From Gammaproteobacteria bacterium (GTDB taxonomy: Bacteria; Pseudomonadota; Gammaproteobacteria; Pseudomonadales; JAUIET01), in assembly GCA_030431775.1 (NCBI GenBank), contig JAUIHW010000003.1:109190-173189 (forward strand): a stretch of DNA of 64,000 nucleotides, in the 5' to 3' direction. Each line of letters begins with the position of its first letter. Position 1 is the first letter of the stretch. Position numbers and translations under genes: made by a program. Under the pieces are notes generated by a model, which had not been told where the DNA came from, made no database searches, and saw only the letters and a program-made list of their open reading frames with translations. This document shows, piece by piece, positions 1,860-48,097 of this stretch.

Positions 1860-1964
1860 AGTTTATACGCTCGACGACTAATCAATTAAAGTAAGACGTA
1901 GGTTGAACACAGTCGTCGCCGTGCGGGACTGGGCAAAACAGGCCAGCAATCGGTTTCCAGTGCT

Positions 1965-4325: not shown

Positions 4326-4327
4326 AC

Positions 4328-15145: not shown

Positions 15146-15191
15146 GAAATTTGCCTAACACACTCGGATAATAAGAAAGGACTCCTAAGCC

Positions 15192-18282: not shown

Positions 18283-18544
18283 TCTATTTTTCCTTTTGTG
18301 GATAATCTCACCGCCCTCACTAATCAGTGCCGGTGCTTCCTGAACCATTCGTGACTGCTACCGGACACATTGTCGCCCAGCAGGCTTTTGGCAGGCAACA
18401 TATGGCAAGGCGTTTATAGCCATGCGGTTGCACACGGCTGGCCATCTTCGGGGGTTTATTGTTTTACGCACTCAGTCCGCCTCAGCGGTTTCAGCCGAGT
18501 ATAATACCCGGCCAATCAATTCGCAGCGCCCCGGAGTACCCCGC

Positions 18545-19693: not shown

Positions 19694-19708
19694 TTTAGAC
19701 GCAGCCCT

Positions 19709-31136: not shown

Positions 31137-32138
31137 ATGAAGATAGGTACCTCTCTGGGCATCAGCCCGCGCGAACCGATTAGTCACTCGGTAGAAGTGG
31201 TTAAAACTGCTGAATCACTTGGCTTTGACGGCGCCTACTTCACCGACGTGCAATTGGCAATGAAGGACTGTTTTTCGGCAATGACCTTGAGCGCTGTGCA
31301 AACGTCGAAAATTCGTCTCGGCACCGGGGTCACCAACCCGATTACCCGGCATCCATCGGTATTGGCGTGCCAGTTCAGCGCACTAAAGGAACTGAGTGAT
31401 GGCCGGGCCGTGCTCGGCATTGGTACCGGCTGGACCGGGGTATTTCCGATCGGCCTGAAGCCCGCTTCCATCAAAGTCATGGAAGACTCCGTGACCGCCA
31501 TTCGCCAGCTGTGTGAAGGTCGTGAAGTGGCCGGTGGCGAGCACGGCGAACCCTACAGGATGAACGTTGCTCAAGGGCCCATCCCGATTTTCGTTGCCGC
31601 TAACCAGCCCAGAATACTGCAGATGTGCGGCCGGGTTGCCGACGGCGTCATTCTGATGGGAGGTGCCAACGAAGCATTCACACAGTGGCAGATTGATCTG
31701 GTGCGCCAAGGTGCCGAATCGGTCGGCCGAGATTTTGCTGACATCGAATTGCACCTTTGGGCGGCCATCGGCATTAATGAAGACCTGGAAAAAAGCCGCG
31801 AGGATGTCAGCCATTGGGCCGCATCCCAGGCTGAAACGTTTCACAAATGGAAAGTACTACCCGATTTTCTGCTGCCTTTTGAGGAAGATTTTGCCAGGGC
31901 CGGCAGTGCGTACAACCGCGAGCATCACCTGTCCTCAAGGGCCGCGCACAAAAACGTGGTGTCGGACGAGTTTATCGATTTTGTCGCCCTCACCGGGGAT
32001 GGGAAAAGCTGCCTTGAACAAATCAGGCAACTGGAGAAACTGGGCTTGCACGGAATGACCCTGTCTTTTAGAGCCGGCGCCGGTGGACGTCGGGCTCGCA
32101 TGGAAGAAATAGCCGAGCATATTATCAGCCAGCTCTAA
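31137..32138 (+). CDS. Luciferase-like (LLM) flavin/deazaflavin-dependent oxidoreductase, Mer-like
   Basis: MKIGTSLG..AESLGFDGAYFTDVQ..IRLGTGVTNPITRHPSVLA..GRAVLGIGTG is the typical LLM TIM-barrel pattern. Confidence 0.75.
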   Translation: MKIGTSLGISPREPISHSVEVVKTAESLGFDGAYFTDVQLAMKDCFSAMTLSAVQTSKIRLGTGVTNPITRHPSVLACQFSALKELSDGRAVLGIGTGWTGVFPIGLKPASIKVMEDSVTAIRQLCEGREVAGGEHGEPYRMNVAQGPIPIFVAANQPRILQMCGRVADGVILMGGANEAFTQWQIDLVRQGAESVGRDFADIELHLWAAIGINEDLEKSREDVSHWAASQAETFHKWKVLPDFLLPFEEDFARAGSAYNREHHLSSRAAHKNVVSDEFIDFVALTGDGKSCLEQIRQLEKLGLHGMTLSFRAGAGGRRARMEEIAEHIISQL

Positions 32139-33547
32139 GCGGCGGGCCGAAGGGGCGGCTCCCTACGTAACATGGCACCGAGAGCCGCCACCAGGCTGAG
32201 CCCACCGAGAATCCACAGGTCCACTCGCAGCCCGGCAACACGTTCCGGCAACACGCCGACGGTGGATGCCAGAAATACCAGCAAGCCTATTGCAGTGGCG
32301 ATCACAATCGGCATGGCAGGACGCTGTGCGCCGAGAACCGCACTGAGAATCATCGGCGCAAGTATGGCGGTACCGGCAAAGCTGACCCGTGCCAGCAGTA
32401 CCAGTTGATCATTGCTGGTGACTGCAACCAGCAGGCCAGCCCCGGCAAAAAAAACTATCGCCAGCTTGGTAATTCTGAGTTTGCGCTGCTCGTTACCATT
32501 CAGCAAAGAACGCAGCTCTGTCCCTAACGCAAATATCTGCGAGTCTGCCGTCGACATGGCTGCGGCGATTAAACCGATTGCGGCGGCCGCGGCCACTATG
32601 GGTGCCTGGTCATAAATAATGGTTTGTGCCAGGAACTCTGTGGTCGGTGCTTTTGGGTACTGTATCGCGCCGTACATACCTATCGGAATAATCATCAAAG
32701 ACAGCAAAACCGCAAAAAAACCGACCCCTATGGCCATTTGGTTAGCAGTTGCCAAGTCACGCAAAATCACAATACGGGTTGACAGCTGCGGTTGGGTAAT
32801 CGGTACGGCCAGAATCACCAGAAACGACGCAAACAGAAATTGCAGGGAAAACAGGCCTTGCGGGCCCGGTACTGACAAAAGAGCCGCGTTTGACTCCCGC
32901 ACCTCGGCAAACAAATTGGCAACGCTGCCAAAATTGGCAATGCAGCCATAGGCAATAACTCCAGTAACCATAAACAGTACACAACCCTGCAGCGAATCCG
33001 CATAGATGATCGCCTTGAGGCCACCGATCTCACTGTAGACCAACATTGCCGTTACGATCGCCAGGGCCCATGCCCAAACCGGCAGCGTGTCAGGGAAGGC
33101 CGCATTCATGAAAATACCGATACCGCGAATCTGCACCGCAACATATGGCACCAGAAAGATGAATACGCCAAGTAAATAGATATAGCCGGCCCAGCGATTG
33201 CGGTAACACTTGACCAGTAAGCCTGCCATACCCTGAAAACCTTCTGCTCTGGCACGACGACGCAAATGCAGTGCGAACCAGATCAGCACAAACGCCATCG
33301 CCGCATCGGCAACTGCCAGAAAAATCCATGCACCAATTCCATGCGTGCGATAAAAGTCCGGCATCCCGAGTAAAGTGAAGGTGCTGAACAACGTGGCCGA
33401 GAACGTCAGAAACCCGAAAATGGCGCCAATCTTTGAGCCAGCCATAACATAGTCGTCAGCACTTTTAACCCGACGCCTGGCATCCAGTGTGGCATATACC
33501 AGGGCCGCAACGTAGCAGGCGCCCAGCACCATGAGCCAGCCGCTCAT
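32135..33547 (-). CDS. Sodium:solute symporter (SSF) family transporter
   Basis: The protein is 470 aa with about 13 hydrophobic helices. The pattern ..GSKIGAIFGFLTFSATLFSTFTLLGMP.. is typical of SSF. Confidence 0.8.
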   Translation of the reverse strand: MSGWLMVLGACYVAALVYATLDARRRVKSADDYVMAGSKIGAIFGFLTFSATLFSTFTLLGMPDFYRTHGIGAWIFLAVADAAMAFVLIWFALHLRRRARAEGFQGMAGLLVKCYRNRWAGYIYLLGVFIFLVPYVAVQIRGIGIFMNAAFPDTLPVWAWALAIVTAMLVYSEIGGLKAIIYADSLQGCVLFMVTGVIAYGCIANFGSVANLFAEVRESNAALLSVPGPQGLFSLQFLFASFLVILAVPITQPQLSTRIVILRDLATANQMAIGVGFFAVLLSLMIIPIGMYGAIQYPKAPTTEFLAQTIIYDQAPIVAAAAAIGLIAAAMSTADSQIFALGTELRSLLNGNEQRKLRITKLAIVFFAGAGLLVAVTSNDQLVLLARVSFAGTAILAPMILSAVLGAQRPAMPIVIATAIGLLVFLASTVGVLPERVAGLRVDLWILGGLSLVAALGAMLRREPPLRPAA

Positions 33548-33792
33548 GAGCGGTTCTCCGTTTCATCGGGATCTTCTGGTTCGGAGTTCCTGCTGCGTAT
33601 GCTGGCTGCCACAATCGTCAGTATCAGAAAAGCGAAAGCCAGTAGAATGCTGACCCAAAGGGTATAGGGCAGGCCAAGCAGAAAAGGGCTTATCCTGCCC
33701 GGCGCGAGATTCCAGGGACTGAACGTAAATACGCACAGCATGAAAAAGATAGCCGAACAATATTGCCAGCTGCGTGATCGCTTGGCTTGCAT
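33544..33792 (-). CDS. DUF3311-like small membrane protein (accessory subunit commonly paired with SSF transporters)
   Basis: There are two TM helices (..FTFSPWNLAPGRISPFLLGLPYTLWVSILLAFAFLILT..) and a 4-nt overlap with the symporter gene. Confidence 0.6.
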   Translation of the reverse strand: MQAKRSRSWQYCSAIFFMLCVFTFSPWNLAPGRISPFLLGLPYTLWVSILLAFAFLILTIVAASIRSRNSEPEDPDETENRS

Positions 33793-33939: not shown

Positions 33940-35160
33940 ATGCACAAACCACTCAGCGGATACCGTGTACTGGACCTCAGCCGGATTTTGGCTGGACCGT
34001 GGGCCACGCAATTACTCGCCGACCTTGGTGCGGATGTCATCAAGGTTGAGCGCCCTGGCCAGGGCGATGACACCCGCGGTTGGGGGCCGCCCTACCTGCA
34101 AGACCGGGCCGGCGAAGATACCAGTGATGCAGCCTACTTTTGCTGTGCGAATCGCAACAAGCGCTCCATTACAATCGACATCAACCAGGCGGAAGGCGCC
34201 AAACTGGTCCGTGACCTGGCGCGCCAATCAGATGTATTGGTGGAAAATTTCAAGACTGGCGGACTGAAGAAGTACCAGCTTGATTATGCGAGCATTCAAG
34301 CCATCAACCCGCGGCTGGTGTATTGCTCGATTACCGGCTTCGGCCAGACCGGCCCGCTGGCACAACGGGCGGGTTATGATTTTCTTATTCAGGGTATGGC
34401 CGGGCTGATGAGTATCACCGGCGAACCGGACTCAGCCGGTGGTATGCCCACCAAAGTCGGTGTTGCTGTGTCTGACCTGTTTACCGGGTTGTATGCTGCC
34501 AACGCGGTGCAGGCCGCGTTGCTGGAACGCGCAACCTCCGGCGAAGGGCAGTACATTGATCTGGCGCTGCTGGACGTGCAGGCAGCCGTCCTGGCCAACC
34601 AGGCCAGCAATTACCTGGTCGGCAACATGGTGCCGCAACGCCTGGGGAACGCGCACCCGAATATAGTACCTTATCAGGCGTTCGCCAGTGCCGACGGACA
34701 TATTATCCTGGCGGTCGGCAATGATCAGCAGTTTCAGAGCTTTTGCAACGCGGCCGCTCGGCCGGACCTCGCCAGCTCGGATCTGTACCAGACCAATCGA
34801 CTAAGAGTGGAAAACCGGGAAACCCTGTGCGCCACAATTGCCGATACCATACGGGCACACTCAACCCGGTACTGGATCGACCTGCTGGAGCAGGCTGGTG
34901 TGCCCTGCGGGCCGATTAACAGCATTGACCAAGTGTTTGCCGCGCCGCAAATCAAGGCGCGCAATATGCGGGTGTCCATTCCTGAGCCCAGAAGTGGCCA
35001 CATCGAACTGGCGGCCAACCCGATCAGGTTCAGCCGCACACCGATCAGCTACGACCGTCCACCGCCGCAGTTGGGTGAAAGCACCGACGAGGTTCTGACA
35101 GAACTGTTAGGGTACTCGGAAAGTAAAATCGTCGAGCTGCGCAACAAAGGCGTAATTTAG
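33940..35160 (+). CDS. Class III (CaiB/BaiF) CoA-transferase
   Basis: LSGYRVLDLSRILAGPWATQLLADLGADVIKVERPGQGDDTRGWGPP..YFCCANRNKRSITIDI is present. Confidence 0.9.
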   Translation: MHKPLSGYRVLDLSRILAGPWATQLLADLGADVIKVERPGQGDDTRGWGPPYLQDRAGEDTSDAAYFCCANRNKRSITIDINQAEGAKLVRDLARQSDVLVENFKTGGLKKYQLDYASIQAINPRLVYCSITGFGQTGPLAQRAGYDFLIQGMAGLMSITGEPDSAGGMPTKVGVAVSDLFTGLYAANAVQAALLERATSGEGQYIDLALLDVQAAVLANQASNYLVGNMVPQRLGNAHPNIVPYQAFASADGHIILAVGNDQQFQSFCNAAARPDLASSDLYQTNRLRVENRETLCATIADTIRAHSTRYWIDLLEQAGVPCGPINSIDQVFAAPQIKARNMRVSIPEPRSGHIELAANPIRFSRTPISYDRPPPQLGESTDEVLTELLGYSESKIVELRNKGVI

Positions 35161-35164
35161 TGAT

Positions 35165-36481
35165 CTAGCTCCAACCCGGAATCCATTTGGTGCCCGCCAG
35201 GGGCACTCTGGCCATTGCGGCGGCTTCCACCGATACCGCCACCAGATCCTCAGGCTCAAGATTCAACACGTGTGATTTACCGCAGGCGCGCGCTATGGTC
35301 TGTGCTTCCAGGGTAATACACTGCAAGTAATTCGCCAGACGCCGGCCGCCCAGTTCCGGGTCGAGTTGGCTCATAAGGTCCGGATCTTGAGTGGATATTC
35401 CGGCTGGGCAAAGCCCTTCGTGATAATCGTCGTAGAAACCCGCCGCCGAACCGATGTCACGATACTGGTCATCATAATTCGGATGATTGCAGCCCAGAGC
35501 AATTAATGCGGCCGTACCGATCGACACGGCATCTGCACCCATCGCCAGACATTTCGCCACATCGGCACCATTGCGGATACCTCCCGACACGACCAGCTGC
35601 ACTTTGCGGTGCATGTCCATTTCCTGTAGCGCCTGAACCGCTTCCGGTATGGCCGCCAGCGTGGGAATACCGACGTGCTCGATAAACACGTCCTGCGTGG
35701 CGGCGGTGCCTCCTTGCATCCCGTCAAGCACAATGACATCAGCACCGGCCTTAACGGCCAGCTTAACGTCATAGTAGGTGCGCGTTGCACCGATTTTCAT
35801 ATAGATCGGCACGCGCCAATCCGTGATTTCACGCAACTCGATCACTTTGATAGCCAGGTCATCCGGGCCGGTCCAGTCCGGGTGCCGGCAGGCACTTCGC
35901 TGGTCCACGCCTTTCGGCAAGGTACGCATTTGAGCAACACGATCGGTTATCTTCTGCCCCAGCAGCATGCCGCCACCACCGGGTTTGGCACCCTGACCCA
36001 GCACTATTTCTATCGCGTCCGCTTTGCGCAGATCGTCGGGGTTCATGCCGTAGCGCGATGGCAGATACTGATAGACCAGCTTGTTGGAGTGGCCCCGTTC
36101 CTCGGGGGTCATACCACCATCACCGGTAGTCGTCGATGTGCCCATCAGGTTGGCGCCACGCCCCAGCGCTTCTTTGGCATTGGCGCTGAGGGCGCCAAAG
36201 CTCATACCAGCGATGGTAATGGGAATATCAATCTTTACAGGTCGCTTCGCAAAGCGGTCCCCAAGGGTCACATCGGTCGCGCATTTTTCTCGATAGCCTT
36301 CAAGCGGATAGCGCGACATGCTCGCACCCAAAAAAAGCAGGTCATCAAAATGCGGCAGCTTGCGCTTGGCGCCAAAGCCGCGAATATCATAAATACCCGT
36401 GGTAGCCGCCCGGTCAATCTCTGCTATCGTTCGTCGATCAAACAGCGCGGATTCAACCAGCCCTGGCGCTTTTGGCTTCAT
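35165..36481 (-). CDS. mgsC: Glutamate-synthase FMN-binding domain protein (N-methylglutamate synthase subunit C-like)
   Basis: ..ITIAGMSFGALSANAKEALGRGA..VLGQGAKPGGGGMLLG..VVSGGIRNGADVAKCLAMGADAV.. corresponds to GltB domain 2. Confidence 0.8.
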   Translation of the reverse strand: MKPKAPGLVESALFDRRTIAEIDRAATTGIYDIRGFGAKRKLPHFDDLLFLGASMSRYPLEGYREKCATDVTLGDRFAKRPVKIDIPITIAGMSFGALSANAKEALGRGANLMGTSTTTGDGGMTPEERGHSNKLVYQYLPSRYGMNPDDLRKADAIEIVLGQGAKPGGGGMLLGQKITDRVAQMRTLPKGVDQRSACRHPDWTGPDDLAIKVIELREITDWRVPIYMKIGATRTYYDVKLAVKAGADVIVLDGMQGGTAATQDVFIEHVGIPTLAAIPEAVQALQEMDMHRKVQLVVSGGIRNGADVAKCLAMGADAVSIGTAALIALGCNHPNYDDQYRDIGSAAGFYDDYHEGLCPAGISTQDPDLMSQLDPELGGRRLANYLQCITLEAQTIARACGKSHVLNLEPEDLVAVSVEAAAMARVPLAGTKWIPGWS

Positions 36482-37182
36482 CGTGACACCTCCGGTAGTA
36501 CTGCGTTGTCGACGCTGAAGTTATACAGCGATTTGTCACTGCCGTACTGCGCGAATTGAGCCGGATCAATGTCGATTTCAGCCTTAGCCAACAGGTCCGA
36601 CAGAATCGACAGATCCTCGGCGGTGCTGGTTTTCCGTTCGCAGCCGGCCCCCAGCGATTCAACTTCTCCGAGCACAAAGATTCGGGTTTCATACAGCGAA
36701 TCCCCCAAGGCTTCACCGGCATCACCACATACCACCAGTGTGCCGGCCTGAGCCATGAAGCAACTCATGTGACCCACACTGCCTTTCACGACAATACTGC
36801 CACCTTTCAGCGAAATGCCGCAGCGAGCAGCGGCGTCACCATCAACAATTAATAAACCACCGTGTGCCGTTGCACCGGCTGACTGGCTGGCATTCCCGGT
36901 TACATGGACCGTGCCGGACATCATGTTTTCTGCGACACCGACACCTACATTGCCATGCACCGTCACTGTCCCACGTTGATGCATGCCGGCACAATAGTAA
37001 CCCGCATGCCCCTGCAGACTAACGTTTATGTTATGGGTTATACCACAGGCAAGTGCATGCTGACCTTTTACGTTGAGGACATTGAAACTCTCACCATCGC
37101 TTTGCACATCGTGCAGAGCCTGGTTCAATTCCCGTACTGAATGCAGGTCACAATCGAAATTTCTCATAGTTAACTCTGTCAC
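36478..37182 (-). CDS. mgsB: GXGXG-motif (glutamate synthase alpha C-terminal beta-helix) protein, subunit B-like
   Basis: Repeated G-x-G turns are seen: GHAGYYCAGM..VHGNVGVGVAENM..VTGNASQSAGATAHGGLLIVDGDAAARCGISLKGGSIVVKGSVG. Confidence 0.8.
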   Translation of the reverse strand: MTELTMRNFDCDLHSVRELNQALHDVQSDGESFNVLNVKGQHALACGITHNINVSLQGHAGYYCAGMHQRGTVTVHGNVGVGVAENMMSGTVHVTGNASQSAGATAHGGLLIVDGDAAARCGISLKGGSIVVKGSVGHMSCFMAQAGTLVVCGDAGEALGDSLYETRIFVLGEVESLGAGCERKTSTAEDLSILSDLLAKAEIDIDPAQFAQYGSDKSLYNFSVDNAVLPEVSR

Positions 37183-37202
37183 TGTTTACATATATGCCAT
37201 GT

Positions 37203-38108
37203 TCAGGCAGCGACCTGTTCGCCCCAGACATAAACCCTCGCGGGCTCGGGTTCCCACAATCGAGCCGACTCGATTCCCGGCAAATGGGCCAGAGACTGGT
37301 ATTCGGACGCAATAGCCACGTAGTCATCTGTTTCCGCCATTACCGCAGGCTTGCAGGCAATGGGGTCCCGCAGCACCGCAAATCCATTTTTCGTGCCGAT
37401 CGCCAGGGTATAAAAACCATCCAGATCGCGCAGTGCGTGCTCCAGGGCTTCCTCCAGTGCATCGCCCTCCTGAAGCCGCCATGTGAGGTAGCCCGCTGCC
37501 ACCTCGGTATCGTTATCAGTTTCGAATTGAATGCCTTTGCGGCGCAGCACTTCGCGTAAGCGGTTATGGTTAGAGAACGAGCCGTTGTGCACCAGACACA
37601 GATCCATTCCGGTTGAAAACGGATGTGACCCTTCGGTTGTAACGTCACTCTCCGTTGCCATTCGCGTATGGCCGATAATATGACTGCCACTCATACCCAC
37701 CAATCCATATTGCGCGACAATATCCACTGGCAAACCGGCTTCTTTCAGTATTTCGATAGAATGACCTATGCTCATGATGCGCAAGTCCGGGTGTTCTTTT
37801 TCCAGAACGTCACGTATTTCCTGCTCACCGGCTTTTATTTCAACTACCGCTGCATTAGCATTTGGCGTAACAAGAATATCATCGCCCACCGCACCAAGGG
37901 ATTCCTGCACAGCGGACCAATCCCGATCGATGGCTGTACTTTGCAAGGTCACCTTGATAGTAGAGTCATCCGCCGGCCGCCGATAAATTGCAAAGCCGGC
38001 ACTGTCGGGCCCGCGACCACTCATAGCAACCAGCATCGGAGCAAACATTTCCCCCAGCCGGGGTTCCAGAGCAGGGTTTTTTAAGTACAAACCAACTATG
38101 CCGCACAT
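37203..38108 (-). CDS. mgsA: Class-II glutamine amidotransferase, subunit A-like
   Basis: The N-terminal nucleophile is MCGIVGLY, with ..GRGPDSAGFAIY..HTRMATES.. Confidence 0.8.
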   Translation of the reverse strand: MCGIVGLYLKNPALEPRLGEMFAPMLVAMSGRGPDSAGFAIYRRPADDSTIKVTLQSTAIDRDWSAVQESLGAVGDDILVTPNANAAVVEIKAGEQEIRDVLEKEHPDLRIMSIGHSIEILKEAGLPVDIVAQYGLVGMSGSHIIGHTRMATESDVTTEGSHPFSTGMDLCLVHNGSFSNHNRLREVLRRKGIQFETDNDTEVAAGYLTWRLQEGDALEEALEHALRDLDGFYTLAIGTKNGFAVLRDPIACKPAVMAETDDYVAIASEYQSLAHLPGIESARLWEPEPARVYVWGEQVAA

Positions 38109-38163
38109 CGATCTCTCTCACTCATGCAGTTTTAAAATGAAAAGCTAGCAGTGTCCGCCTGGC

Positions 38164-39498
38164 CTAGAAAAACTCGGCGTAATGCTCCAGTTCCCACTCC
38201 GACACCTGACGCTGGTACTCTACCCACTCCATGCTTTTGAGCTTCATGAATTCCTCCATTAACCCTTCACCCAGTTGCTCCGCGAATAACGAATCAGTTT
38301 GCAGGTCTACCAGCGCTTCGTGCAGGCTTTGCGGCAGCGTATGCACCCCCATCTCGGCCAGCTCTTCCGCGCTCTGGGTGTAATGGTTGATGTTTCTGGG
38401 TTCACCCGGATCAAGTTTGCGATCGACCCCGTCCAGGCCAGCGGCTATCACGGCTGCATGCACCAGGTACGGGTTGCAACCGGCATCCGCCAGGCGCAGT
38501 TCCAGACGCCCATAAGGCACCCGCACCATGGAAGAGCGGTTATTATCACCGTAGGAAATATAAGCGGGAGCCCAGGTCGCACCGGACAGCGCATTGCCAA
38601 CAACAAGGCGCTTGTAGGAATTAACGGTGGGCGCTGCTATCGCACACAGGGCGCGCGCATGATGAATAAGCCCACCCATCCAATGATAGGCAACGGGCGA
38701 CAAGCCAAGGCCATTTTTGTCATTGTCGTCGCTGAAAATATTGGCGTTGTCTTCGGTCGCAATCGACATATGCATATGCATGCCGTTACCGGTACGTGTG
38801 GCCGCCGGTTTGGGCATAAACGAACAGATCATTCCCATCTCATTGGCAATTTCGCTGCCAGCCATACGAACCAGCACAAAACGATCACAGGAACTCAGGG
38901 CATCACTGTAGGTGTAGTTGATCTCAAACTGACCGTTCGCGTCCTCGTGATCAATCTGATAGACATCCAGGCCTATTTCCTGCAAAGAACCCACGAATTT
39001 TTCAAGAAACGCCCGCGACCGGGAGAGGCCCTTGTAGTCATAGCAGGGCTTGTCAAGACGATCGGTGTCGTCTGCGAGCACAATTCGCCCCGCTTCATTG
39101 CGCTTTAGCAGGCAAAACTCCGGTTCAAGGCCAGTGTTGAGCGTCCAGCCTCGTTCGTTCAAGCGTTCGATCTGGGTCAGCAATACCTGGCGTGAGTCCA
39201 GCGGGTGCGGCTGGTCATTGACGTGGCCGGTACAGGCGATACGTGCATAACCCGGCTGCCAGGGCACCAGGCTCAGACTGCTGAGGTCACCGCGTGCCAT
39301 GAAATCCGGGGAATGCGGTTCCTGCCCAAGCCCCCAGACCGCGAAGCCGGCGAAACCGGCCCCATCAGTGACGACATCCTCCAGACAGTGTGCCGGAACC
39401 GATTTGGTCTTGGCCACACCGTGGATGTCTACAAACTGTGCCAGAACGAACTTGATGTTGTGTTCTTTCAGAAACTTCTTGGCTTGCTCTAGGTTCAT
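38164..39498 (-). CDS. gmaS: Type III glutamine-synthetase-like gamma-glutamyl-amide synthetase (GmaS/GlnT-like)
   Basis: ..[77 protein letters not shown].. is the GS catalytic core; the protein is 444 aa. Confidence 0.8.
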
Positions 39499-39634
39499 GT
39501 GGGACCCCTCTTCTGTGTGAGCTACTATGTGCGAGCCTGGACGCGCGATTTATGGATAGACTCGGCGTTTTATTACCAGTAGAAAAACAATATTACTATC
39601 AGTAAACTTTTACGACAAGCACCCCGGACAATTC

Positions 39635-40237
39635 ATGCCTGCGATGACCAACAGCGATCCCAACCTGAAGCTTGACCGGTACCTGGCTGCGAAACTGCGC
39701 CAGGAACGGCAGTCACAGGGCCTGAAGATTATCGATGTCGCGCAATTGGCCGGCATCAGCCAGGGCATGCTAAGCCGTATCGAGAATGCCCAGGTATCAA
39801 CCAGCCTGGAAACCCTGCACAAAGTCTGCAAGGCGCTTGGTTTGCATTTATCCACCCTGTTTAACGATTTCGAACGCCCCGAAGGCTCTGCCCAGCTGGT
39901 CAAGCGGGGCCAGGGGCTTGAGGTTGTCAAACGCGGCACCGAGCGCGGGCACACCTACCATTTACTGTGCTACCACCTGGGGCCACACCGCAACATAGAG
40001 CCATTTCTGGTTACCATGGACGATGCCAGCGAAGTGTTTCCCACCTTTGCCCACCCCGGCACGGAATTCATCCATTTACTGGAAGGCGAGTTGATCTACC
40101 GGCACGGCAATCACACCTACCATTTGCAAGCGGGCGACAGCCTGACTTTCGAAGGTGAAATACCGCACGGTCCTGAAGAACTGCGCCAGGTGCCCATTCG
40201 CTTGCTGTCGGTCATGAACTACGGCGAGCCCCTTTAA
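39635..40237 (+). CDS. XRE-family HTH plus cupin transcriptional regulator (PuuR-like architecture)
   Basis: LRQERQSQGLKIIDVAQLAGISQGMLSRIENAQ is the HTH_XRE domain. HPGTEFIHLLEGELIYRHGNHTYHLQAGDSLTFEGEIPHG is the cupin domain. Confidence 0.85.
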   Translation: MPAMTNSDPNLKLDRYLAAKLRQERQSQGLKIIDVAQLAGISQGMLSRIENAQVSTSLETLHKVCKALGLHLSTLFNDFERPEGSAQLVKRGQGLEVVKRGTERGHTYHLLCYHLGPHRNIEPFLVTMDDASEVFPTFAHPGTEFIHLLEGELIYRHGNHTYHLQAGDSLTFEGEIPHGPEELRQVPIRLLSVMNYGEPL

Positions 40238-40350: not shown

Positions 40351-40475
40351 GCCCTTCAAGGCTTCCCTGACAAAGGTGGCTTATGAACTTGTTGGCCCAT
40401 TCAGGTTGTCACGCAATGGCCGGCGCGTTTCTCATCACCAGCAGCAATCGATTCGAACAGCAACGAGGTATCACA

Positions 40476-42629
40476 ATGAAAACGCTCAAGCAGAACAGTA
40501 AACCGCTCGTCCTGGCAGTGCCTTTGCTCATGGCACCCATGGCGGTCAATAGCGCAGGAATGCTCGAAGAAATCATCGTATCGGCGCAAAAGCGACAGGA
40601 GAGCCTGCAAGACGTTAATCTCGCCGTTTCCGCAGTGACCGGTGACCGTATGGAAGAGTTCCAGATCGATACCGTTGAGGATCTGCAGGGCATGGTCCCG
40701 TCCTTGTCCGCCGGCAACGACTTTGCCTTCGCAAAAATATTTATCCGTGGTATCGGGCTGAACAGCTCTTTTGCCGGTGTTGATCCTTCCGTAGCCTTAC
40801 ACGTCGATGGCGCGGTGAATTCTCTGTCTTATTCGCAGCTTGGCTCATTTTTCGATCTGGATCGAGTAGAGGTTTTGCGCGGTCCACAGGGTACTTTATA
40901 CGGCCGGAACGCTACCGGCGGGGCGATCAACCTGATCACCCGCAAACCAAGCGAGGAGTATGAAGGCTATGTGCGGGTAACGGCCGGTACAGATTCTCTG
41001 TTGCGCACCGAAGCCGCAGTCGGTGGTCCATTGACCGACAGGATACTGGGCCGCATCTCGGTCAAGCACACCGACCGGGATGGCTACGGCATTAATGAAC
41101 TGTCAGGAAACGACGTGGACGACGCCAATAAAAAATCAGCTCGCGTGCACCTGCAGTTCAACTTCAGTGACGATGTTGATCTGCTGCTTTCCAGTGAATG
41201 GCATGACGAAGACGATGCCGGCCTGGGGCTGAAATACATCGAGTCTCTGTCCAATCTTGACCCGACATTTCTGCCGCCTCCGGGTGCCGGCGGCTTTGCC
41301 GTGGGACAGCGCAATGTAGCGTCGGAGTTAGACAACAAAAACCAGCGTGACTCTGTTTCAACCACCGCAACCTTAAACTGGCGCTTTAACGACCAGTGGC
41401 GCTTGACCTCTATCACCAACTACCGCGACTCGAACGTGCGCCTGCTTCAAGATATTGATTTCTCCACTAATATCAATAATCAGATACAGGATAATCGCAC
41501 CACCAGTGAACAAATCAGCGAGGAATTGCAGCTGCATTATGAAGGTGACCGCATGCGAGGCCTGCTGGCATTCTGGTATTACGATGAACACTTTACCAAT
41601 GCAAATCAGATCGGTTTTGCCCGTGCCGCAGACGGTTTGGTTCGCAATGTGTTCTTCACGGCCGATGTAGATATCGAGTCCATCGCATTGTTCGGCAATT
41701 TTGAATACGATCTCACCGACAACCTGACCTTGAACCTGGGCGGCCGCTGGACCGACGAGGAACGCGGTGGCAACACCCAGCGCGCCATCTTCGCGATCGA
41801 CCTGGATCTGCGCTTCGAGGATGAAGACAGCTTCTCCAACTTCAAGCCTTCAGTAGGCGTTGAATGGCGGCCGAACGAGAACATTCTGACCTATTTCACT
41901 TACTCGGAAGGATTTAAGGGTGGCGCATTCCAGGGCGGTCAGGTAACACCGATTCTTGAGCCCGAGCTTATCGATAATTTTGAAGCCGGCTTTAAGGGTG
42001 AATTTCTCGATCAACGGCTCAAGCTGAATTTGGCCGGCTTCTTCTTCGAAGTTGAGGACATGCAGCTTGACCGGACGCGGGAAACCGCCCCCGGGGTACT
42101 GCTTGGTATCTTTGAAAACGCCGCGTCGGCGGAAGGCTACGGCATCGAAGCGGAGAGCACCTGGCTGGTGACCGAGCAGTTCACCCTGAGCGGCAGTCTG
42201 GCCTGGCTGGAAACCGAGTTCACTGACTACACCACCGACAATCCGATTACCGCTGCAGCTGAGATTATTGACCTGAGCGGTAACTCCTTACGCCAGGCTC
42301 CCGAGTTCAGCTACTTTATTCGCGGTGAGTATGAGCTGCCACTCGCCAATGGAGCGGCGCTGACCTTTGGAGCCAATGCATCCTACAAAAGCCGTCAGTA
42401 CTACACGGAGTTTAACGACGACATCACCAGCCAGGAAGGCTATACGCTTGTGGACCTGAATGTGATGTACACATCGCCAAATGAAAAACTGACCGTTAAC
42501 GTATGGGGCAAAAACGTTACCGACGAACTGGTTGCAGGTGGGGCGTTTGTGAACGCGCTCGGCAGAGCGATCACCAACACGTATCTGCCGCCTGCAACCG
42601 CGGGCATCACGGTAGGCTATGACTTCTAG
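40476..42629 (+). CDS. TonB-dependent outer-membrane receptor
   Basis: The start MKTLKQNSKPLVLAVPLLMAPMAVNSAG (signal peptide) is at 40476 with a GAGG SD. The plug region is EEIIVSAQKRQESLQDV..VEVLRGPQGTLYGRNATGGAINLIT. The terminal beta-strand is ..GITVGYDF. Confidence 0.9.
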   Translation: MKTLKQNSKPLVLAVPLLMAPMAVNSAGMLEEIIVSAQKRQESLQDVNLAVSAVTGDRMEEFQIDTVEDLQGMVPSLSAGNDFAFAKIFIRGIGLNSSFAGVDPSVALHVDGAVNSLSYSQLGSFFDLDRVEVLRGPQGTLYGRNATGGAINLITRKPSEEYEGYVRVTAGTDSLLRTEAAVGGPLTDRILGRISVKHTDRDGYGINELSGNDVDDANKKSARVHLQFNFSDDVDLLLSSEWHDEDDAGLGLKYIESLSNLDPTFLPPPGAGGFAVGQRNVASELDNKNQRDSVSTTATLNWRFNDQWRLTSITNYRDSNVRLLQDIDFSTNINNQIQDNRTTSEQISEELQLHYEGDRMRGLLAFWYYDEHFTNANQIGFARAADGLVRNVFFTADVDIESIALFGNFEYDLTDNLTLNLGGRWTDEERGGNTQRAIFAIDLDLRFEDEDSFSNFKPSVGVEWRPNENILTYFTYSEGFKGGAFQGGQVTPILEPELIDNFEAGFKGEFLDQRLKLNLAGFFFEVEDMQLDRTRETAPGVLLGIFENAASAEGYGIEAESTWLVTEQFTLSGSLAWLETEFTDYTTDNPITAAAEIIDLSGNSLRQAPEFSYFIRGEYELPLANGAALTFGANASYKSRQYYTEFNDDITSQEGYTLVDLNVMYTSPNEKLTVNVWGKNVTDELVAGGAFVNALGRAITNTYLPPATAGITVGYDF

Positions 42630-42705: not shown

Positions 42706-42788
42706 CAAAGAGCAATGATACCCATGGCATTGTTAAATGCCGGTACAGAACCTGTTTGCAAGGAACACCACGACAGAGGAGACTATTT

Positions 42789-44453
42789 GTGACAACAGAC
42801 AATGCGGTTATTGGCCGCGACTTACTCGCCAGTGCCATCAGCAATGCCGGCATCGACACTGTGTTCACCGTTGCCGGAGGACATTTTCTTCCCACCTATA
42901 ACAGTATCGGTCGTCAGGCTTCGCTGGCTATTGTTGCCGCCCGACACGAGCAGGGCGCCGGCTATATGGCATCGGGCTATGCCTTGACCACAGGCAAACC
43001 AGGTGTTGTGTTTTCCGGTGCACCGGGACCTGGAGCCACCAATCTGATCACAGCAGTCGCCAACGCACATGCCGACTCCATTCCATTACTGGTACTGAGT
43101 GCACAGGTAGATCGCCGCTACATACATCGCAATATTCTGCAGTATTGCGACAACGTTAGTTTGTTCGCGCCATTCTGCAAACGCTCGGTACAAGCAGTCT
43201 CGCTGGAAGAAGTGCCCAACCTGATCGCCACCGGCCTGCAACTGGCAGTGACCGGAAGACCGGGACCAGTTCATATCGCTCTGCCACAGAACCTGCAGGC
43301 AGAGCAAGGAGTGGAAACCACTCTGGACGTGGCCGACAGCAGCCCCTGCCTGCCTTCCAGTCAGGATGTCGATGCGCTGGCGGCCTTGTTGGCGAACAGT
43401 AAAAAGCCGGCCATCCTCGCCGGTCACGGTGTATTGCGTTCCGGCAGTGCCGGGCAATTGGAGAAACTTGCCGCGAGCCTTGGTGCACCGGTTGCCACCA
43501 GTCGTTCCGGCGTTGGCTCCATTAACACAAACAACCCGCTCAGCATGGGGATGCTGGGTTTTTATGGCCCCAACAGTGCCCGCGATGCTATGGCCGCAGC
43601 TGACACGGTGCTGATTATCGGTTGTGCGTTGGGCGAACAGACCACCTTTGGCTGGCGCCCGACACTGTTTGCCGAGGATGCGCAATTGATCCAGGTCGAT
43701 GCCGATGCCTCGCAAATCAATCGCGTTTACCCGGTTAAGCAAGGCATCGTCTGCGATGCAGGCAGCCTGCTGGATGCGCTCGACGGTCAATTCACCGGGA
43801 AACGCGAGGCCTGGTTCAGCGGCAAGCCAGAGCGCTCCGCACCACAGAATAACCCGGCGCAGGGTCTGAGCGCCGCCGAGGTGATGCAAACGCTAAATCA
43901 ACAGGCCAGTGACAAGACCATCGTAACGGCCGATATCGGTAATCATCGACTTTGGGTGTGTGAGCAACTGGACATCAAGCGGCCTGAGGCCTTACTGCAG
44001 TCCTGTGAATTCGATGCGATGGGTTTCAGCCTTCCCGCTGCCATCGGCGCCTGCGTTGCAGAGCCGACCACCCGTATCATTTCGATTTCAGGCGATGGAG
44101 GTTTTGTTCACACCATGGGTGAGCTGGCCGTAGCGAAAGAGCTGGGCGTGTCGCTGGTGGCCATTGTTTTTGTCGACGGTGCCCTGGGTATTCTTAAGCA
44201 CCAGGCCGAGGAAATGTATGGCGAGCACCATTTTGTACGCCTCGAATCGATCGATTTTGCCAAAGTGGCGGATGCCATGGGCGTACCCAGTCGCACGGTC
44301 GCTGAAACAGCCGCACTGGATGATGCGTTCACCTGGGCTATGCAGGCAGACGGGCCTGTACTGTTATCGGTGCAAATCGACCCTGATGAAATTTTTCCGC
44401 CGCTCAGAACCAAAATCGAGCAGCGAAAAATAGACCTGCTGGGCAAGAAGTAA
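42789..44453 (+). CDS. Thiamine-diphosphate-dependent enzyme (acetolactate-synthase-like fold; substrate unknown)
   Basis: The likely GTG start at 42789 is 8 nt after a GGAG. ..HEQGAGYMASGYALTTGKPGVVFSGAPGPGATNLITAVANAHADSIPLLVL.. is present, along with the ThDP motif ISGDGGFVHTMGELAVA.. Confidence 0.85.
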   Translation: MTTDNAVIGRDLLASAISNAGIDTVFTVAGGHFLPTYNSIGRQASLAIVAARHEQGAGYMASGYALTTGKPGVVFSGAPGPGATNLITAVANAHADSIPLLVLSAQVDRRYIHRNILQYCDNVSLFAPFCKRSVQAVSLEEVPNLIATGLQLAVTGRPGPVHIALPQNLQAEQGVETTLDVADSSPCLPSSQDVDALAALLANSKKPAILAGHGVLRSGSAGQLEKLAASLGAPVATSRSGVGSINTNNPLSMGMLGFYGPNSARDAMAAADTVLIIGCALGEQTTFGWRPTLFAEDAQLIQVDADASQINRVYPVKQGIVCDAGSLLDALDGQFTGKREAWFSGKPERSAPQNNPAQGLSAAEVMQTLNQQASDKTIVTADIGNHRLWVCEQLDIKRPEALLQSCEFDAMGFSLPAAIGACVAEPTTRIISISGDGGFVHTMGELAVAKELGVSLVAIVFVDGALGILKHQAEEMYGEHHFVRLESIDFAKVADAMGVPSRTVAETAALDDAFTWAMQADGPVLLSVQIDPDEIFPPLRTKIEQRKIDLLGKK

Positions 44454-44471
44454 CGGGAGTAGAATACAGCC

Positions 44472-45068
44472 ATGTTGGAAAAAGAAATTCGCAAATTACA
44501 CATTACGGTAGAAGAATTGCACACGGAGGCTGACCGCCCGGTGTCACCGCCGCTGAAGACCGCACTGGTCGCCGCAGTGATGCGCAACCCCTGGGCCGGT
44601 CAACCTTTTGTTGAAGACCTACGTGAGGAGATTAGACGCTTCGCGGCAGACCTTGGTGCCTTACTGGGTGACAAGCTGCTGGAAACTTTTGGCTCGGCAG
44701 AGGCCATACAGTCCTGCGGCAAGGCTTCTGTGGTCGGTGTCAATGGTGAGCTGGAGCATGCTTCAGCCATGGTGCACACGCTGCTGTTCGGCGAGCAAAT
44801 CCGCAAGCGTATCGATGGCAAAAGCACATTGGTGTTTGCCAACACCCGCGGTGGCCCCGGCACTACCATTACGGTGCCGATGGTCAGCAAACTGGAGTTA
44901 TTGACACGCTCACATTACCACACTGTGACCAGCAATATTGATGATGCGCCGCGTGCCGATGAAGTGGTTGTGGCAATAGCCGGTGCCAGCGGCGGCCGCC
45001 CGTTTCCACGTATTGGCAATCGCGACATTGATATGCAGGATATTGAGGCAGCACGCTCGCAGGACTAA
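44472..45068 (+). CDS. AA_synth (DUF1185, 'amino acid synthesis') family protein of unknown biochemical function
   Basis: ..IRKLHITVEELHTEADRPVSPPLKTALVAAVMRNPWAG..GKASVVGVNGELEHASAMVHT..TITVPMVSK.. matches my recollection of PF06684; not verified by search. Confidence 0.6.
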   Translation: MLEKEIRKLHITVEELHTEADRPVSPPLKTALVAAVMRNPWAGQPFVEDLREEIRRFAADLGALLGDKLLETFGSAEAIQSCGKASVVGVNGELEHASAMVHTLLFGEQIRKRIDGKSTLVFANTRGGPGTTITVPMVSKLELLTRSHYHTVTSNIDDAPRADEVVVAIAGASGGRPFPRIGNRDIDMQDIEAARSQD

Positions 45069-45109
45069 ATAGCACGTGCATAAGGGCGGCCAGACTGCCG
45101 CCGCCTAAC

Positions 45110-45778
45110 CTATTTTTTTATCTGGCTGCCCACGGTGCCGAGGTCCTGCTCCAGCTGTTGCAGTGCGTGTGCGCGATGAACATCCAGAAGCTCAATGAGC
45201 AGCTCGGCCTTACCGTCCTCGGCGGCGGCAATGATTTCTCGGTGTTCTCGATCGGTTCGCTCCCGATTCTCTGGCAGCATGAAAAAGCGCGAACAGTAGG
45301 ATTCGGACGAATCCCATAACCAGCCAATCAGCCGCAGCAAATGAGGCATGCTCGCAGCTTCCATCAGGGTAAAGTGCAGACGTCGATTGGCGGCCTTCAC
45401 CTGCAATACATCACTACCGCCGCTTTCCATTTCTTCCGCGGCAGCCCGCATCTGTTGCAGGTCCGAATCAGTCAGTTTCGGCAGGGCATTGCGAATAGCC
45501 TCCGCCTCCAGAATCGAGCGCAGCTTGTGAATTTCCTTCAGATCCGCCAGATCGAGTTCAACGACAAGGTAACCACGGTGCGGGCGATACTTTACCTGAC
45601 CCTCTCCCTCCAGGATCCGTAAAGCCTCGCGCACTGGCACGGCCGATACGCCCAGTTGTTCGCCGATCGCATCCGGCCGGATAGCGTCACCAGGTTGGAT
45701 CACGCCGTTCAGCAAGCGTTCCCTGATCTCCAGCAAAACGGCTTCCTGAGCAGTCTTCGGACGTTCAAACCTGTTCAC
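45110..45778 (-). CDS. GntR family transcriptional regulator (FadR/FCD subfamily)
   Basis: IRERLLNGVIQPGDAIRPDAIGEQLGVSAVPVREALRILEGEGQV is the winged helix, followed by a helical FCD-like C-terminal domain. Confidence 0.9.
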   Translation of the reverse strand: MNRFERPKTAQEAVLLEIRERLLNGVIQPGDAIRPDAIGEQLGVSAVPVREALRILEGEGQVKYRPHRGYLVVELDLADLKEIHKLRSILEAEAIRNALPKLTDSDLQQMRAAAEEMESGGSDVLQVKAANRRLHFTLMEAASMPHLLRLIGWLWDSSESYCSRFFMLPENRERTDREHREIIAAAEDGKAELLIELLDVHRAHALQQLEQDLGTVGSQIKK

Positions 45779-45846
45779 TGATGTTCAAACCCTCATGTAA
45801 GCAAAAGCCCGCGTATTTTATACATTTATAGCTGCATGAACAGCGA

Positions 45847-47022
45847 CTAGTGGTTACTCCGATACTCAATATCAGCCACCCGGCGCGCTCTTAGCGTGCA
45901 CAGTGACCCATTGACCCGAACCTGCCCATCCGTTAGGACAACCGCAACACCCGGGAACTCACCTTCGGCCAGTGCGGCTGTAGCGTTCTCCTCACAGGAA
46001 CCAAGCGATGCATCGATCACCACAAGATCTGCCGCCGCCCCGATTTCCACTGTATTACCTTCCACGCCGAAGGCTCTTGCACCCTGACCCGAAGCCACCG
46101 CCCAGACCCGTTCGGGTGAGACATCGGCCAGAGAACATATATCACCGATCGTTTTCAGAATTCCCAACGGCGCCACCCCGTAACCGGTTGGTGTGTCGGT
46201 ACCAATGAGTAAGCGGTGCAGAGCATTTTTTTCAAGCAGACGATTCACGACCCGCAGCATCTTTTTGACTCCGCCAGCCTGTACCACTTCCACATATGGC
46301 GGGCCATCATCGTCGCAGAGCAGATCAACATCCTCATCAGACAACGACGCAAAAGTATTGGCGTGTGACGCGATCGATGGCTGAACAAGCTGCACGTCCC
46401 CGGCTGAAAAATGGGGGTGTGCATCACCGCCCGGGCCACGATCCGACGTACAACCGCAATGCATGTGGACAGTCATACCCAGGTTACGCGCATACAAAGA
46501 CAGTTCACCGGAGCGCACCGGGTCCTTGAGGGAACCGATGCCTACTTCGCCGATAATACGCATTCCTGAGGCGAAGGCTTGATCTATGTGATGAAATTCA
46601 GTGTCTGTCTCGAACAGCATGGCGCCGCCATGCACCCGGATTCCCAAGGGCCGGAACGATTGAAAAGAATAAAAAGCGGCTTGCGCAATGGCCAGCGCAC
46701 TGTCAGCACCTGTGCGCCCGGGCACATGCACCTCGCCGGCTGATATTGCCCGTGTTACCGCGCCATGCACCATACGCTCAAGAAACCCGATCGATTGCTG
46801 TTTAGTACCCCAGTCGCCAATGGTCGGATGGATGTGCGTATCAACCAGACCAGGGGCAACCACCATACCCTTACAGTCAATGATGGTATCGGGATTTGGC
46901 GCCGATGCCGCGTCGAAGCTGCTTATTACACCATCTTCGATGACAATAGTATCCGCTTCCACGGTCGGGGAACCCAATATACCGCTGTAGGTCTGGCCGA
47001 TATTATGTAAAACGGTTTGCAT
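45847..47022 (-). CDS. Metal-dependent amidohydrolase superfamily protein (enamidase-like size and layout)
   Basis: An N-terminal beta-sandwich is followed by the APGLVDTHIHP (HxH) metal motif, then ..VHMHCG.. and ..LIGTDTP.. (Asp). Confidence 0.75.
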   Translation of the reverse strand: MQTVLHNIGQTYSGILGSPTVEADTIVIEDGVISSFDAASAPNPDTIIDCKGMVVAPGLVDTHIHPTIGDWGTKQQSIGFLERMVHGAVTRAISAGEVHVPGRTGADSALAIAQAAFYSFQSFRPLGIRVHGGAMLFETDTEFHHIDQAFASGMRIIGEVGIGSLKDPVRSGELSLYARNLGMTVHMHCGCTSDRGPGGDAHPHFSAGDVQLVQPSIASHANTFASLSDEDVDLLCDDDGPPYVEVVQAGGVKKMLRVVNRLLEKNALHRLLIGTDTPTGYGVAPLGILKTIGDICSLADVSPERVWAVASGQGARAFGVEGNTVEIGAAADLVVIDASLGSCEENATAALAEGEFPGVAVVLTDGQVRVNGSLCTLRARRVADIEYRSNH

Positions 47023-47060
47023 ATACCCCTCCTGTTTCCGTCTGCCAATGCCTGTTAGTG

Positions 47061-48044
47061 TCAGATGTTTGGCATGATTTCTTTAACAAACAAATCAATC
47101 TGGGCTTCATCCTCGACGAGCGGATTGAACATAAGATGTTGCACGCCGGCCTCCCTGATCCGGCCAATCCTCGCAATCAGATCATCGATGGTTCCAAACA
47201 GATAGGAATGCTGCAGATCCTGGTCGGTACGTCGATGATCCATCACGGTGCGATACGCTGCCAACTGCTCCTCGATAGCCTTGTCCCTGTCGCTGGTTTC
47301 AACAACATGGATCCACTGGGCGTGAGCGACCGTGAAATCGTCCAAACCTTTTACCTTGTCCAGATGTTTGGTTACCGTGCTGATATCCTTTTGCAGGATA
47401 CTCTCGTCAGTACCACTGGATCGGCAAATCCAACCCGAATTGCGCGTGATCCGCTCAAGTACTGCCGGAGCCATATTCGGCAAATCAAAGTTGGTGGCCA
47501 TATGGACCTGCGAGCCTCCGCCAATCCAGATTGGAATTGGTTTTTCCGGCCGCGGGTAAAGAGTGATGCCATTTACCTGATAGTACTTACCCTCGTAGTG
47601 AACATCATCTTCGGTCCACAGGCGCTGGATCAGCTCAAGGGCCTCGTCAGTACGCTTGCCTCGTTCTTTTTTGGAGACGCCTACCGAATCAAACTCCAGT
47701 TCATCATGGCCGGTACCGACGCCCAGGATCATACGGCCGCCGCCAGCTAGATGGTCGATACTTGCAACTTCCTTGGCTGTCATCGTTGGGTGACGCATTG
47801 GCGCGCACAGAATGGACGTTCCCAACTTGATGCGCTCAGTGCAGCCGGCGACCGCCGCCAGTGTAATCAGCGGGTCCAGCCAGGCGGTGGAGTATACATT
47901 CGGCGCCACCAGCAGGTGATCAATGACCCAAATGGCTTCAAAGCCTGAGTCTTCCACTTTTTTGCAATACGGTACCAGCCCGCGAGAGACGGAAGCAGGC
48001 CCCCCTTCACGAGCATAGGACGGAATCCTCCACCCAATATCCAT
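47061..48044 (-). CDS. LLM-class oxidoreductase (resembles the F420-dependent Rv2161c-type subfamily)
   Basis: ..GFEAIWVIDHLL..IKLGTSILCAPMRHPTMTAKEVASIDHLAGGGRMILGVGTGHDELEF..RTDEALELIQRLWTEDDVHYEGKYYQV..PIPIWIGGGS.. Confidence 0.7.
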   Translation of the reverse strand: MDIGWRIPSYAREGGPASVSRGLVPYCKKVEDSGFEAIWVIDHLLVAPNVYSTAWLDPLITLAAVAGCTERIKLGTSILCAPMRHPTMTAKEVASIDHLAGGGRMILGVGTGHDELEFDSVGVSKKERGKRTDEALELIQRLWTEDDVHYEGKYYQVNGITLYPRPEKPIPIWIGGGSQVHMATNFDLPNMAPAVLERITRNSGWICRSSGTDESILQKDISTVTKHLDKVKGLDDFTVAHAQWIHVVETSDRDKAIEEQLAAYRTVMDHRRTDQDLQHSYLFGTIDDLIARIGRIREAGVQHLMFNPLVEDEAQIDLFVKEIMPNI

Positions 48045-48097
48045 TCAACTTCTCCTGTACTAACAATATTTATTTTTCGTAAGCATGCAATAGCAGC

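Follow-up and report, generated by a model that had tools for sequence, protein, structure and literature searches.

A gmaS-mgsABC operon with its own XRE-cupin regulator and no linked mgd genes in a Pseudomonadales contig: probable front half of a split N-methylglutamate pathway

Gene content of the module

The stretch of DNA analyzed here, referred to as the window, comprises 64,000 nt (64 kb) of contig JAUIHW010000003.1 (GenBank assembly GCA_030431775.1, positions 109,190 to 173,189 of the forward strand) from a gammaproteobacterium of the Pseudomonadales. Between positions 35165 and 40237 it carries a five-gene module, in which four minus-strand genes, assigned below as gmaS-mgsABC of the N-methylglutamate (NMG) pathway, are read away from a plus-strand gene for a putative regulator. 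The features of the module are as follows.

39635-40237, plus strand: XRE-family helix-turn-helix and cupin regulator, 200 amino acids (aa), with Pfam HTH_3 (residues 21-74) and Cupin_2 (126-193)
39499-39634, minus strand: divergent control region, 136 nt between the regulator gene and gmaS
38164-39498, minus strand: gmaS, predicted gamma-glutamylmethylamide synthetase (glutamate--methylamine ligase, EC 6.3.4.12), 444 aa, TIGR03105
37203-38108, minus strand: mgsA, predicted class-II (N-terminal nucleophile, Ntn) glutamine-amidotransferase-like NMG synthase subunit, 301 aa, GATase_6/GATase_7, MCGIVG start
36478-37182, minus strand: mgsB, predicted GXGXG-motif (GltB C-terminal domain-like) subunit, 234 aa, Pfam GXGXG 40.7 bits
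35165-36481, minus strand: mgsC, predicted flavin mononucleotide (FMN)-binding glutamate-synthase-domain subunit, 438 aa, Pfam Glu_synthase 318.7 bits

The domains of all five open reading frames (ORFs) were confirmed by Pfam and NCBIfam. Within the four-gene run (39498-35165, minus strand), gaps of 55 nt and 20 nt are followed by a 4-nt overlap between mgsB and mgsC (36478-36481). A previous reading made from the letters alone (the sequence-only reading) had described a tight minus-strand run with an MCGIVG start and a 4-nt last overlap, and each of these features was confirmed, with all ORFs lying where it had placed them. MgsA begins with Met-Cys, as for an Ntn amidotransferase with an N-terminal Cys. 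MgsA, MgsB, and MgsC are three separate subunits that match the amidotransferase, GXGXG, and FMN domains of GltB, and their genes are co-operonic with gmaS. Judged by family models, active-site residues, and orthology, the four genes are gmaS-mgsABC and would encode the first two steps of the NMG pathway, from methylamine to N-methylglutamate, so that the earlier description of the run as the front half of this pathway held up. Linked mgdABCD, the mark of a complete NMG locus, is absent from the 64 kb.

Comparison with related loci

The comparison set consisted of 80 loci with 10-kb flanks from species-representative genomes, 2 plasmid loci, and 7 metagenome or metagenome-assembled genome (MAG) loci. 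The species-representative set lacks the source genome, and the best GmaS match in it was 89% identical. The two relatives closest to the window, L001/L005 and L004, come from MAGs labeled Pseudomonadota or uncultured Pseudomonadales and encode GmaS proteins 88-89% identical to that of the window. MgsC is 92-93% identical to the L001 and L004 proteins and 80-86% identical to mgd-linked orthologues. The corresponding values are 61-75% for MgsA against the same-position gene in related clusters (61-69% against mgd-linked gammaproteobacterial loci) and 60-75% for MgsB against its orthologues (60-65% against the mgd-linked loci).

The module most resembles the gmaS-mgsABC-mgdABCD clusters of beta- and gammaproteobacteria (Methyloversatilis universalis FAM5 type), with which it shares the gene order gmaS-mgsA-mgsB-mgsC and the same XRE-cupin family. 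Those compared were from an Acinetobacter plasmid (NZ_CP015595), the Acidithiobacillus caldus megaplasmid, Thiomicrorhabdus, Oceanospirillales, and Pseudomonas. Together with the GMAS of Methylovorus mays, these clusters encode GmaS proteins 62-78% identical and MgsC proteins 80-86% identical to those of the window, and the ligases belong to the same GmaS clade. Unlike them, the window has no purU, folD, mgdABCD, or amt within 24-35 kb of the module. The clusters of Ruegeria pomeroyi and other roseobacters differ more, since their order is mgsABC-gmaS, their regulator is the AraC-type TmaR rather than an XRE-cupin protein, and they are set among tmm, tdm, and dmm genes. A plasmid locus of Ruegeria conchae resembles the window in having no mgd, within 9 kb.

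Among 87 non-redundant loci, 68 were mgd-linked, 7 had full flanks without mgd, and 12 were too short to tell. MgdA or MgdC was thus encoded within 10 kb in 68 of the 75 informative loci (56 upstream of gmaS, 12 downstream), and for this reason the absence of mgd from the neighborhood is unusual. The seven unlinked loci were L001/L005, L004, those of three Pseudomonas species (P. taiwanensis DSM 21245, P. oryzagri MAHUQ-58, and Pseudomonas sp. LRF_L74), one from a Phycisphaeraceae MAG, and one orphan gmaS locus. The MAG Pseudomonadales AC1.3 (L050, 10001-11320) carries an orphan gene for a GmaS homologue of 68% identity, and the 10-kb flanks of this gene contain no mgsABC and no mgd.

Identity of the ligase and its substrate

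Against TIGR03105, the model for GmaS, the ligase scored 658.2 bits and passed the curated cutoff of 469.6. It failed the GlnA model TIGR00653 (339 bits, cutoff 429) and the PuuA model (256 bits, cutoff 650). The best match in the PDB was 9QUR, the GMAS of Methylovorus mays No. 9 (661 bits; global identity 63.6%), for which activity on both methylamine and ethylamine has been measured (PMC12588301). In the GmaS of Rhodovulum sp. 12E13 (RhGmaS, PDB 7CQL), the methylamine pocket is formed by K30', Y147, Q175, D177, E179, E186, and N188, and the catalytic residues are D177, E186, and R312 (PMC7948447). Compared with glutamine synthetase, Ala replaces the ammonium-binding Asp50' and Trp replaces the glutamate of the Glu-flap in GmaS (PMC7948447).

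Residues of the window ligase were mapped by alignment to RhGmaS, and 18/18 anchor residues matched. The two proteins, only ~43% identical, belong to the same enzyme family, and all seven pocket residues (K32, Y153, Q181, D183, E185, E192, and N194) are identical to those of RhGmaS. The catalytic residues D183, E192, and R321 correspond to D177, E186, and R312, and both GmaS signatures are present: A50, in the stretch FAGFA, for A48', and W309, in the stretch ATWAP, for W300. The sole change among the 18 residues checked is that of W189 to Y195, a ribose contact. Because the TIGR03105 cutoff was passed, the identity to M. mays GMAS is 63.6%, and the pocket and signature residues are conserved, the ligase is assigned as GmaS on its sequence, and the predicted active site gives no hint of a new substrate. 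We infer that methylamine is the substrate.

The sequence-only reading had raised a second possibility, that this copy acts on some other primary amine and relies on a noncanonical oxidation step. With ethylamine, ethanolamine, or a larger amine as the substrate, for instance, the products would be a gamma-glutamyl amide and an N-alkylglutamate, to be oxidized by a noncanonical oxidase. GmaS enzymes are indeed promiscuous, RhGmaS and the M. mays enzyme accepting ethylamine, propylamine, and hydroxylamine (PMC7948447, PMC12588301), and the neighborhood of the module is not a C1 context. Against this branch stand the 63.6% identity to M. mays GMAS, the seven of seven pocket residues, catalytic residues, and GmaS signatures shared with RhGmaS, the 80-86% identity of MgsC to orthologues in complete NMG clusters, and the absence of a long branch to the clade, which is nested among GmaS sequences of mgd-linked loci. 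We therefore consider a different amine improbable.

A further possibility is auxiliary ammonium assimilation by a "type III" glutamine synthetase (GlnT) and a split glutamate synthase (GlxBCD), as homologues of these genes are annotated as "type III glutamate--ammonia ligase" and "FMN-binding glutamate synthase family protein". Rhizobial glnT-glxBCD genes represent the same four protein families and give the same TIGR03105 match as the window. They are 38-39% identical, have the order glxBCD-glnT, and fall in an alphaproteobacterial sister clade. Against ammonium as the substrate, the ammonium-binding Asp50' corresponds to Ala50 and the Glu-flap glutamate to Trp309, as in GmaS; the GlnA model score is below its cutoff; and a GltD-like NAD(P)H subunit is lacking. 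The rhizobial locus itself sits within a methylated-amine cluster: on the Rhizobium leguminosarum plasmid NZ_CP007047 (L084, 1-16725), glnT-glxBCD lies between soxBDA-like genes, purU, an aminomethyltransferase gene, and dmmABC-like genes. The R. leguminosarum locus thus looks like an NMG or methylated-amine cluster and not like a glutamine synthetase system, and its "glutamine synthetase III" product names are probably misleading. An assignment as type I glutamine synthetase (GlnA) was ruled out by the sub-cutoff score and the replacement of both the Asp50' and the Glu-flap residues. Model scores, sequence identities, and the residues of the active site also led to rejection of the reading as a glutamine synthetase/glutamate synthase (GS/GOGAT) pair, and ammonium assimilation appears very improbable.

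A phylogeny of GS-like proteins including GmaS, PuuA, and GlnT, which had been proposed as a check, was run as a neighbor-joining tree. The ligase grouped with M. mays GMAS in the beta/gamma GmaS clade, the sister clade of which contains Rhodovulum GmaS and rhizobial "GlnT" (38-43% identity), with PuuA and GlnA outside. The proposed contrast with bona fide GlnT did not discriminate, because glnT-glxBCD lies among mgd-like, purU, and dmm genes and shares a clade with Rhodovulum GmaS.

The Puu pathway of Escherichia coli shares the logic of a GS-like ligase that gamma-glutamylates an amine under an HTH_3 and cupin repressor. In contrast to that pathway, the window has no counterparts of puuD, puuC, or puuB, its ligase and regulator are 29% and 30% identical to PuuA and PuuR, respectively, and its second enzyme is a GltB-like synthase instead of the oxidase and hydrolase route. 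A Puu-type assignment was ruled out by the sub-cutoff model scores, the identities of ~29-30%, and the lack of adjacent hydrolase, aldehyde dehydrogenase, and oxidase genes.

The regulator and the control region

The XRE-cupin regulator is 79-80% identical to the L001 and L004 regulators and 50-66% identical to the products of XRE genes in mgd-linked clusters. Such a gene recurs across related NMG clusters (50-80% identity), divergent from gmaS or from purU-mgdA, and on the strength of this recurrence it is assigned as the cognate regulator of beta/gamma-type NMG clusters. The PuuR architecture attributed to it by the sequence-only reading holds at the level of domains only: it scored 69.6 bits against the PuuR equivalog model (cutoff 211), is 30% identical to E. 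coli PuuR, and is an orthologue of the XRE-cupin proteins of NMG clusters. It is predicted to repress the divergent gmaS operon. Two elements were recognized in the control region.

39613-39618 (-35, TTGTCG) and 39590-39595 (-10, TAATAT), minus strand: predicted sigma70-like gmaS promoter with a 17-nt spacer, read directly from the sequence
39593-39605, minus strand: perfect palindrome TTACT-GAT-AGTAA, candidate operator of the XRE-cupin regulator, overlapping the spacer and the -10 box

The predicted promoter matches 8 of 12 consensus positions and was not called by the consensus scanner. The same -35/17/-10 layout was found in L001 and L004 (TTTACA-17-TAATAT) and in L090 (TTGCAA-17-TAATAT). 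No further TTAC-N5-GTAAT site exists in the 64 kb besides the candidate operator. Operator-like sites were also present in L001 and L004 (TTACCAATAGTAA), twice in L093 (TTACTAGAAGTAA), and before purU/mgdA in L090 and L055. The window-type promoter and operator architecture thus occurs beside the XRE gene of the mgd-linked loci L090, L093, and L055, where it faces purU/mgdA. A motif search for a second operator site, which might mark a co-regulated operon, found none elsewhere in the 64 kb; since the palindrome is single, no second operon in the window appears to be part of the regulon. No leader RNA or Rfam element was found in the module region.

In contrast, a sigma54-type -24/-12 element (TGGCA-N7-TGC[AT]) was present in 29/29 of the other loci with an XRE gene divergent from gmaS (Oceanospirillales, Pseudomonas, and Acinetobacter; L012-L083), 70-210 nt upstream of gmaS and with GGAAA/TTTCC-type inverted repeats alongside. 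No such element was found in the control region of the window, L001, and L004, where the predicted sigma70-type promoter and the TTACT-N3-AGTAA operator stand instead. The two promoter types suggest that nitrogen control differs between the groups. In the window, the regulator would sit on TTACT-N3-AGTAA across the -10 box and so repress the gmaS promoter, until a small ligand recognized by its cupin domain releases it from the palindrome.

Origin of the layout

In a neighbor-joining tree of concatenated GmaS, MgsA, and MgsC, the window, L001, and L004 formed a clade with 100% bootstrap support (200 replicates). This clade was nested among loci in which the XRE gene is divergent from purU-mgdABCD-gmaS-mgsABC, first L091, L090, and L093 (GmaS 75-78% identical) and then Thiomicrorhabdus. 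Because of this nesting among mgd-linked relatives, the layout of the window is, on the tree, a derived one, in which purU-mgd was lost from the operon. The nearest mgd-linked relative, L090 (GmaS 78% identical), has two insertion sequence (IS)-type genes between the XRE promoter and mgdA (1268-4995), namely a DDE_3 transposase gene (1402-2532) and an rve gene (3768-4538). purU is interrupted by them, which leaves an N-terminal piece (2582-3076) and a C-terminal piece (4813-4983), and L090 may be a snapshot of the purU-mgd block in the course of being lost. Given the tree, the shared promoter and operator, and the IS elements of L090, the ancestral operon would have lost purU-mgdABCD from between the promoter and gmaS, plausibly via IS-mediated deletion. 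No terminal repeats or IS elements were found at the edges of the module, and no purU or mgd remnants were found around it.

L001 and L004 are syntenic throughout, and the window shares only the five module genes with them. The region of homology to L001 is bounded precisely by the stop codons of the XRE gene and of mgsC, which indicates that the five-gene unit changed its genomic context as a block.

Another observation concerns L093, in which a second GltB-like set lies directly downstream of mgsC (14448-19829). It consists of a GATase, a fused GXGXG and Glu_synthase protein, and an 835-aa Fer4_20/Pyr_redox_2/Glu_synthase protein, and represents a second glutamate-synthase-like enzyme beside the NMG genes.

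Maintenance of the module

All five ORFs are intact in the three genomes. Between L001 and L004, synonymous divergence (dS) of the five genes was 0.58-0.74 and the ratio of nonsynonymous to synonymous divergence (dN/dS) was 0.012-0.072. Between the window and L001 or L004, synonymous sites were saturated and the proteins were still 72-93% identical. The low dN/dS and the retention of protein identity at saturated synonymous sites indicate that the module is maintained under strong purifying selection. As the last step of the pathway has gone from the operon, the module might be thought a decaying, nonfunctional remnant of mgd deletion; the intact ORFs, the dN/dS values, and the conserved proteins make this scarcely credible.

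The fate of N-methylglutamate

GmaS would ligate methylamine to the gamma-carboxyl of glutamate with ATP to form gamma-glutamylmethylamide, and the three-subunit GltB-like NMG synthase MgsABC would convert this to NMG. According to established biochemistry, a gain of nitrogen or carbon for the cell would require demethylation of NMG. In the proposed split NMG pathway, the oxidation of NMG to glutamate and methylene-tetrahydrofolate would fall to an mgd/sox-type enzyme whose genes lie in another part of the genome, and the pathway would probably serve the use of methylamine as a nitrogen source. We infer that such an unlinked oxidase is likely to be present. Overall, the locus is probably best explained as a front-half NMG module that was derived by loss of purU-mgd and works within a split pathway. 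Such an arrangement has precedents: in R. pomeroyi, gmaS-mgsABC and mgdABCD form separate operons, and the methylated-amine genes of other strains have been described as "scattered" (PMC13390433). Mgd is also reported to serve other NMG-producing routes, such as homarine catabolism (PMC13390433). In addition, gmaS and mgsABC alone were the gene set chosen to engineer NMG production in Pseudomonas putida (PMC6237917).

Several observations weigh against the split pathway. A Pfam scan of the window, whose flanks left and right of the module measure 35.2 kb and 23.8 kb, respectively, found no DAO, SoxD, SoxG, or GCV_T domains and no purU or folD among ORFs of at least 150 aa, and the PurU, FolD, and MgdA-D proteins of the Acinetobacter plasmid gave no tblastn match at E<=1 in the 64 kb. 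No ammonium/methylamine transporter gene (amt), purU, or folD accompanies the module, though these are common in canonical clusters. With MgdA of L090 as the query, no protein from the source contig or the L001 MAG was among the best 120 matches (at least 68% identity), a search restricted to one MgdA type. The trees used to place the clade are simple neighbor-joining trees, and the promoter and operator are both sequence predictions. The absence of mgd within 25 kb on either side, asserted in the sequence-only reading, is true of the whole window and slightly overstated for the right flank of 23.8 kb.

Five candidate MgdA matches were checked, and all came from other assemblies: P0169 and P0231 are linked clusters, P0149 is a stretch with an XRE gene divergent from purU-mgd, and two are short contigs ending within mgdC. 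The MgdA search is weak negative evidence, as it used one MgdA type only.

These results bear on a rival explanation, in which Mgd was truly lost in the lineage and NMG is either an end product (of methylamine detoxification, as a solute, or as a precursor) or is oxidized by an enzyme outside the Sox/Mgd family. The layout did arise by loss of purU-mgd from the operon, no MgdA of the source contig or the L001 MAG appeared among the best 120 matches, strong purifying selection shows that the module is useful without linked mgd, and the promoter type is unlike the sigma54 promoters of the other loci with an XRE gene divergent from gmaS. On the other hand, by the established stoichiometry of NMG synthase, the nitrogen of methylamine stays trapped in NMG unless it is demethylated, so that there is no obvious benefit. 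Moreover, unlinked mgd operons are documented in other bacteria (PMC13390433), the MgdA search was confined to one MgdA type and its best 120 matches, and MAGs are incomplete. We regard a true loss of Mgd as unlikely, and it is equally doubtful that a small clade of uncultured marine Pseudomonadales kept and moved the regulator-gmaS-mgsABC unit for an Mgd-independent role after deletion of purU-mgdABCD.

With the split pathway retained as the preferred explanation, the locus is essentially an ordinary, intact gmaS-mgsABC operon with its own cognate regulator and belongs to a known type of system. Its single distinctive trait is the lineage-specific loss of the linked purU-mgd genes.

Other genes in the window

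The neighbors named in the sequence-only reading are real. A CaiB-family CoA-transferase gene (33940-35160) adjoins mgsC in convergent orientation, and because the two genes end only 4 nt apart (35161-35164), there is no room for a terminator between them. A TonB receptor gene lies at 40383-42629, and genes for luciferase-like monooxygenase (LLM) oxidoreductases lie at 31137-32138 and 47061-48044. As candidate parts of the system, the CaiB-like CoA-transferase, the TonB receptor, a sodium:solute symporter (SSS), and a thiamine diphosphate (TPP) enzyme were rejected, since none stands beside the module in ~90 related loci. Two genes from the module, an 82-aa membrane protein with no Pfam match (33544-33792) is encoded with a 4-nt overlap with the start of the sodium:solute symporter gene (32135-33547), which looks like a pair of small subunit and SSS transporter; this pair is not conserved beside the module in other loci.

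A separate gene group at 42756-50735 encodes an acetolactate-synthase-like TPP enzyme, a PF06684 "amino acid synthesis" protein, a GntR/FCD regulator, an amidohydrolase, a luciferase-like monooxygenase, and an NMT1-type ABC transporter (permease, ATPase, and binding protein), and resembles a catabolic island for a compound that contains nitrogen or sulfur. The window also contains a gene for an 820-aa penicillin-amidase-family protein, possibly an acyl-homoserine-lactone or beta-lactam acylase (10019-12481), and a complete rmlBADC dTDP-rhamnose cluster (14072-17487). Many of the remaining genes belong to acyl-CoA metabolism (ligases, dehydrogenases, hydratases, and thiolases).

Significance

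Ocean bacteria that use methylamine are surveyed with gmaS as a marker gene. Should lineages with gmaS-mgsABC and without mgd exist, gmaS counts would overestimate complete methylamine oxidation, and cells might release or store N-methylglutamate as such. For the present locus an ordinary split pathway is favored by the evidence, and its practical value in this respect is accordingly modest. The present analysis corrects the annotation of such genes as type III glutamine synthetase and glutamate synthase. On the strength of its recurrence, the XRE-cupin gene is identified as encoding the regulator that belongs to beta/gamma-type NMG clusters, and a candidate operator is put forward. In one lineage, moreover, the front half of the pathway, with its five genes, is seen to behave like an independent, transferable module.

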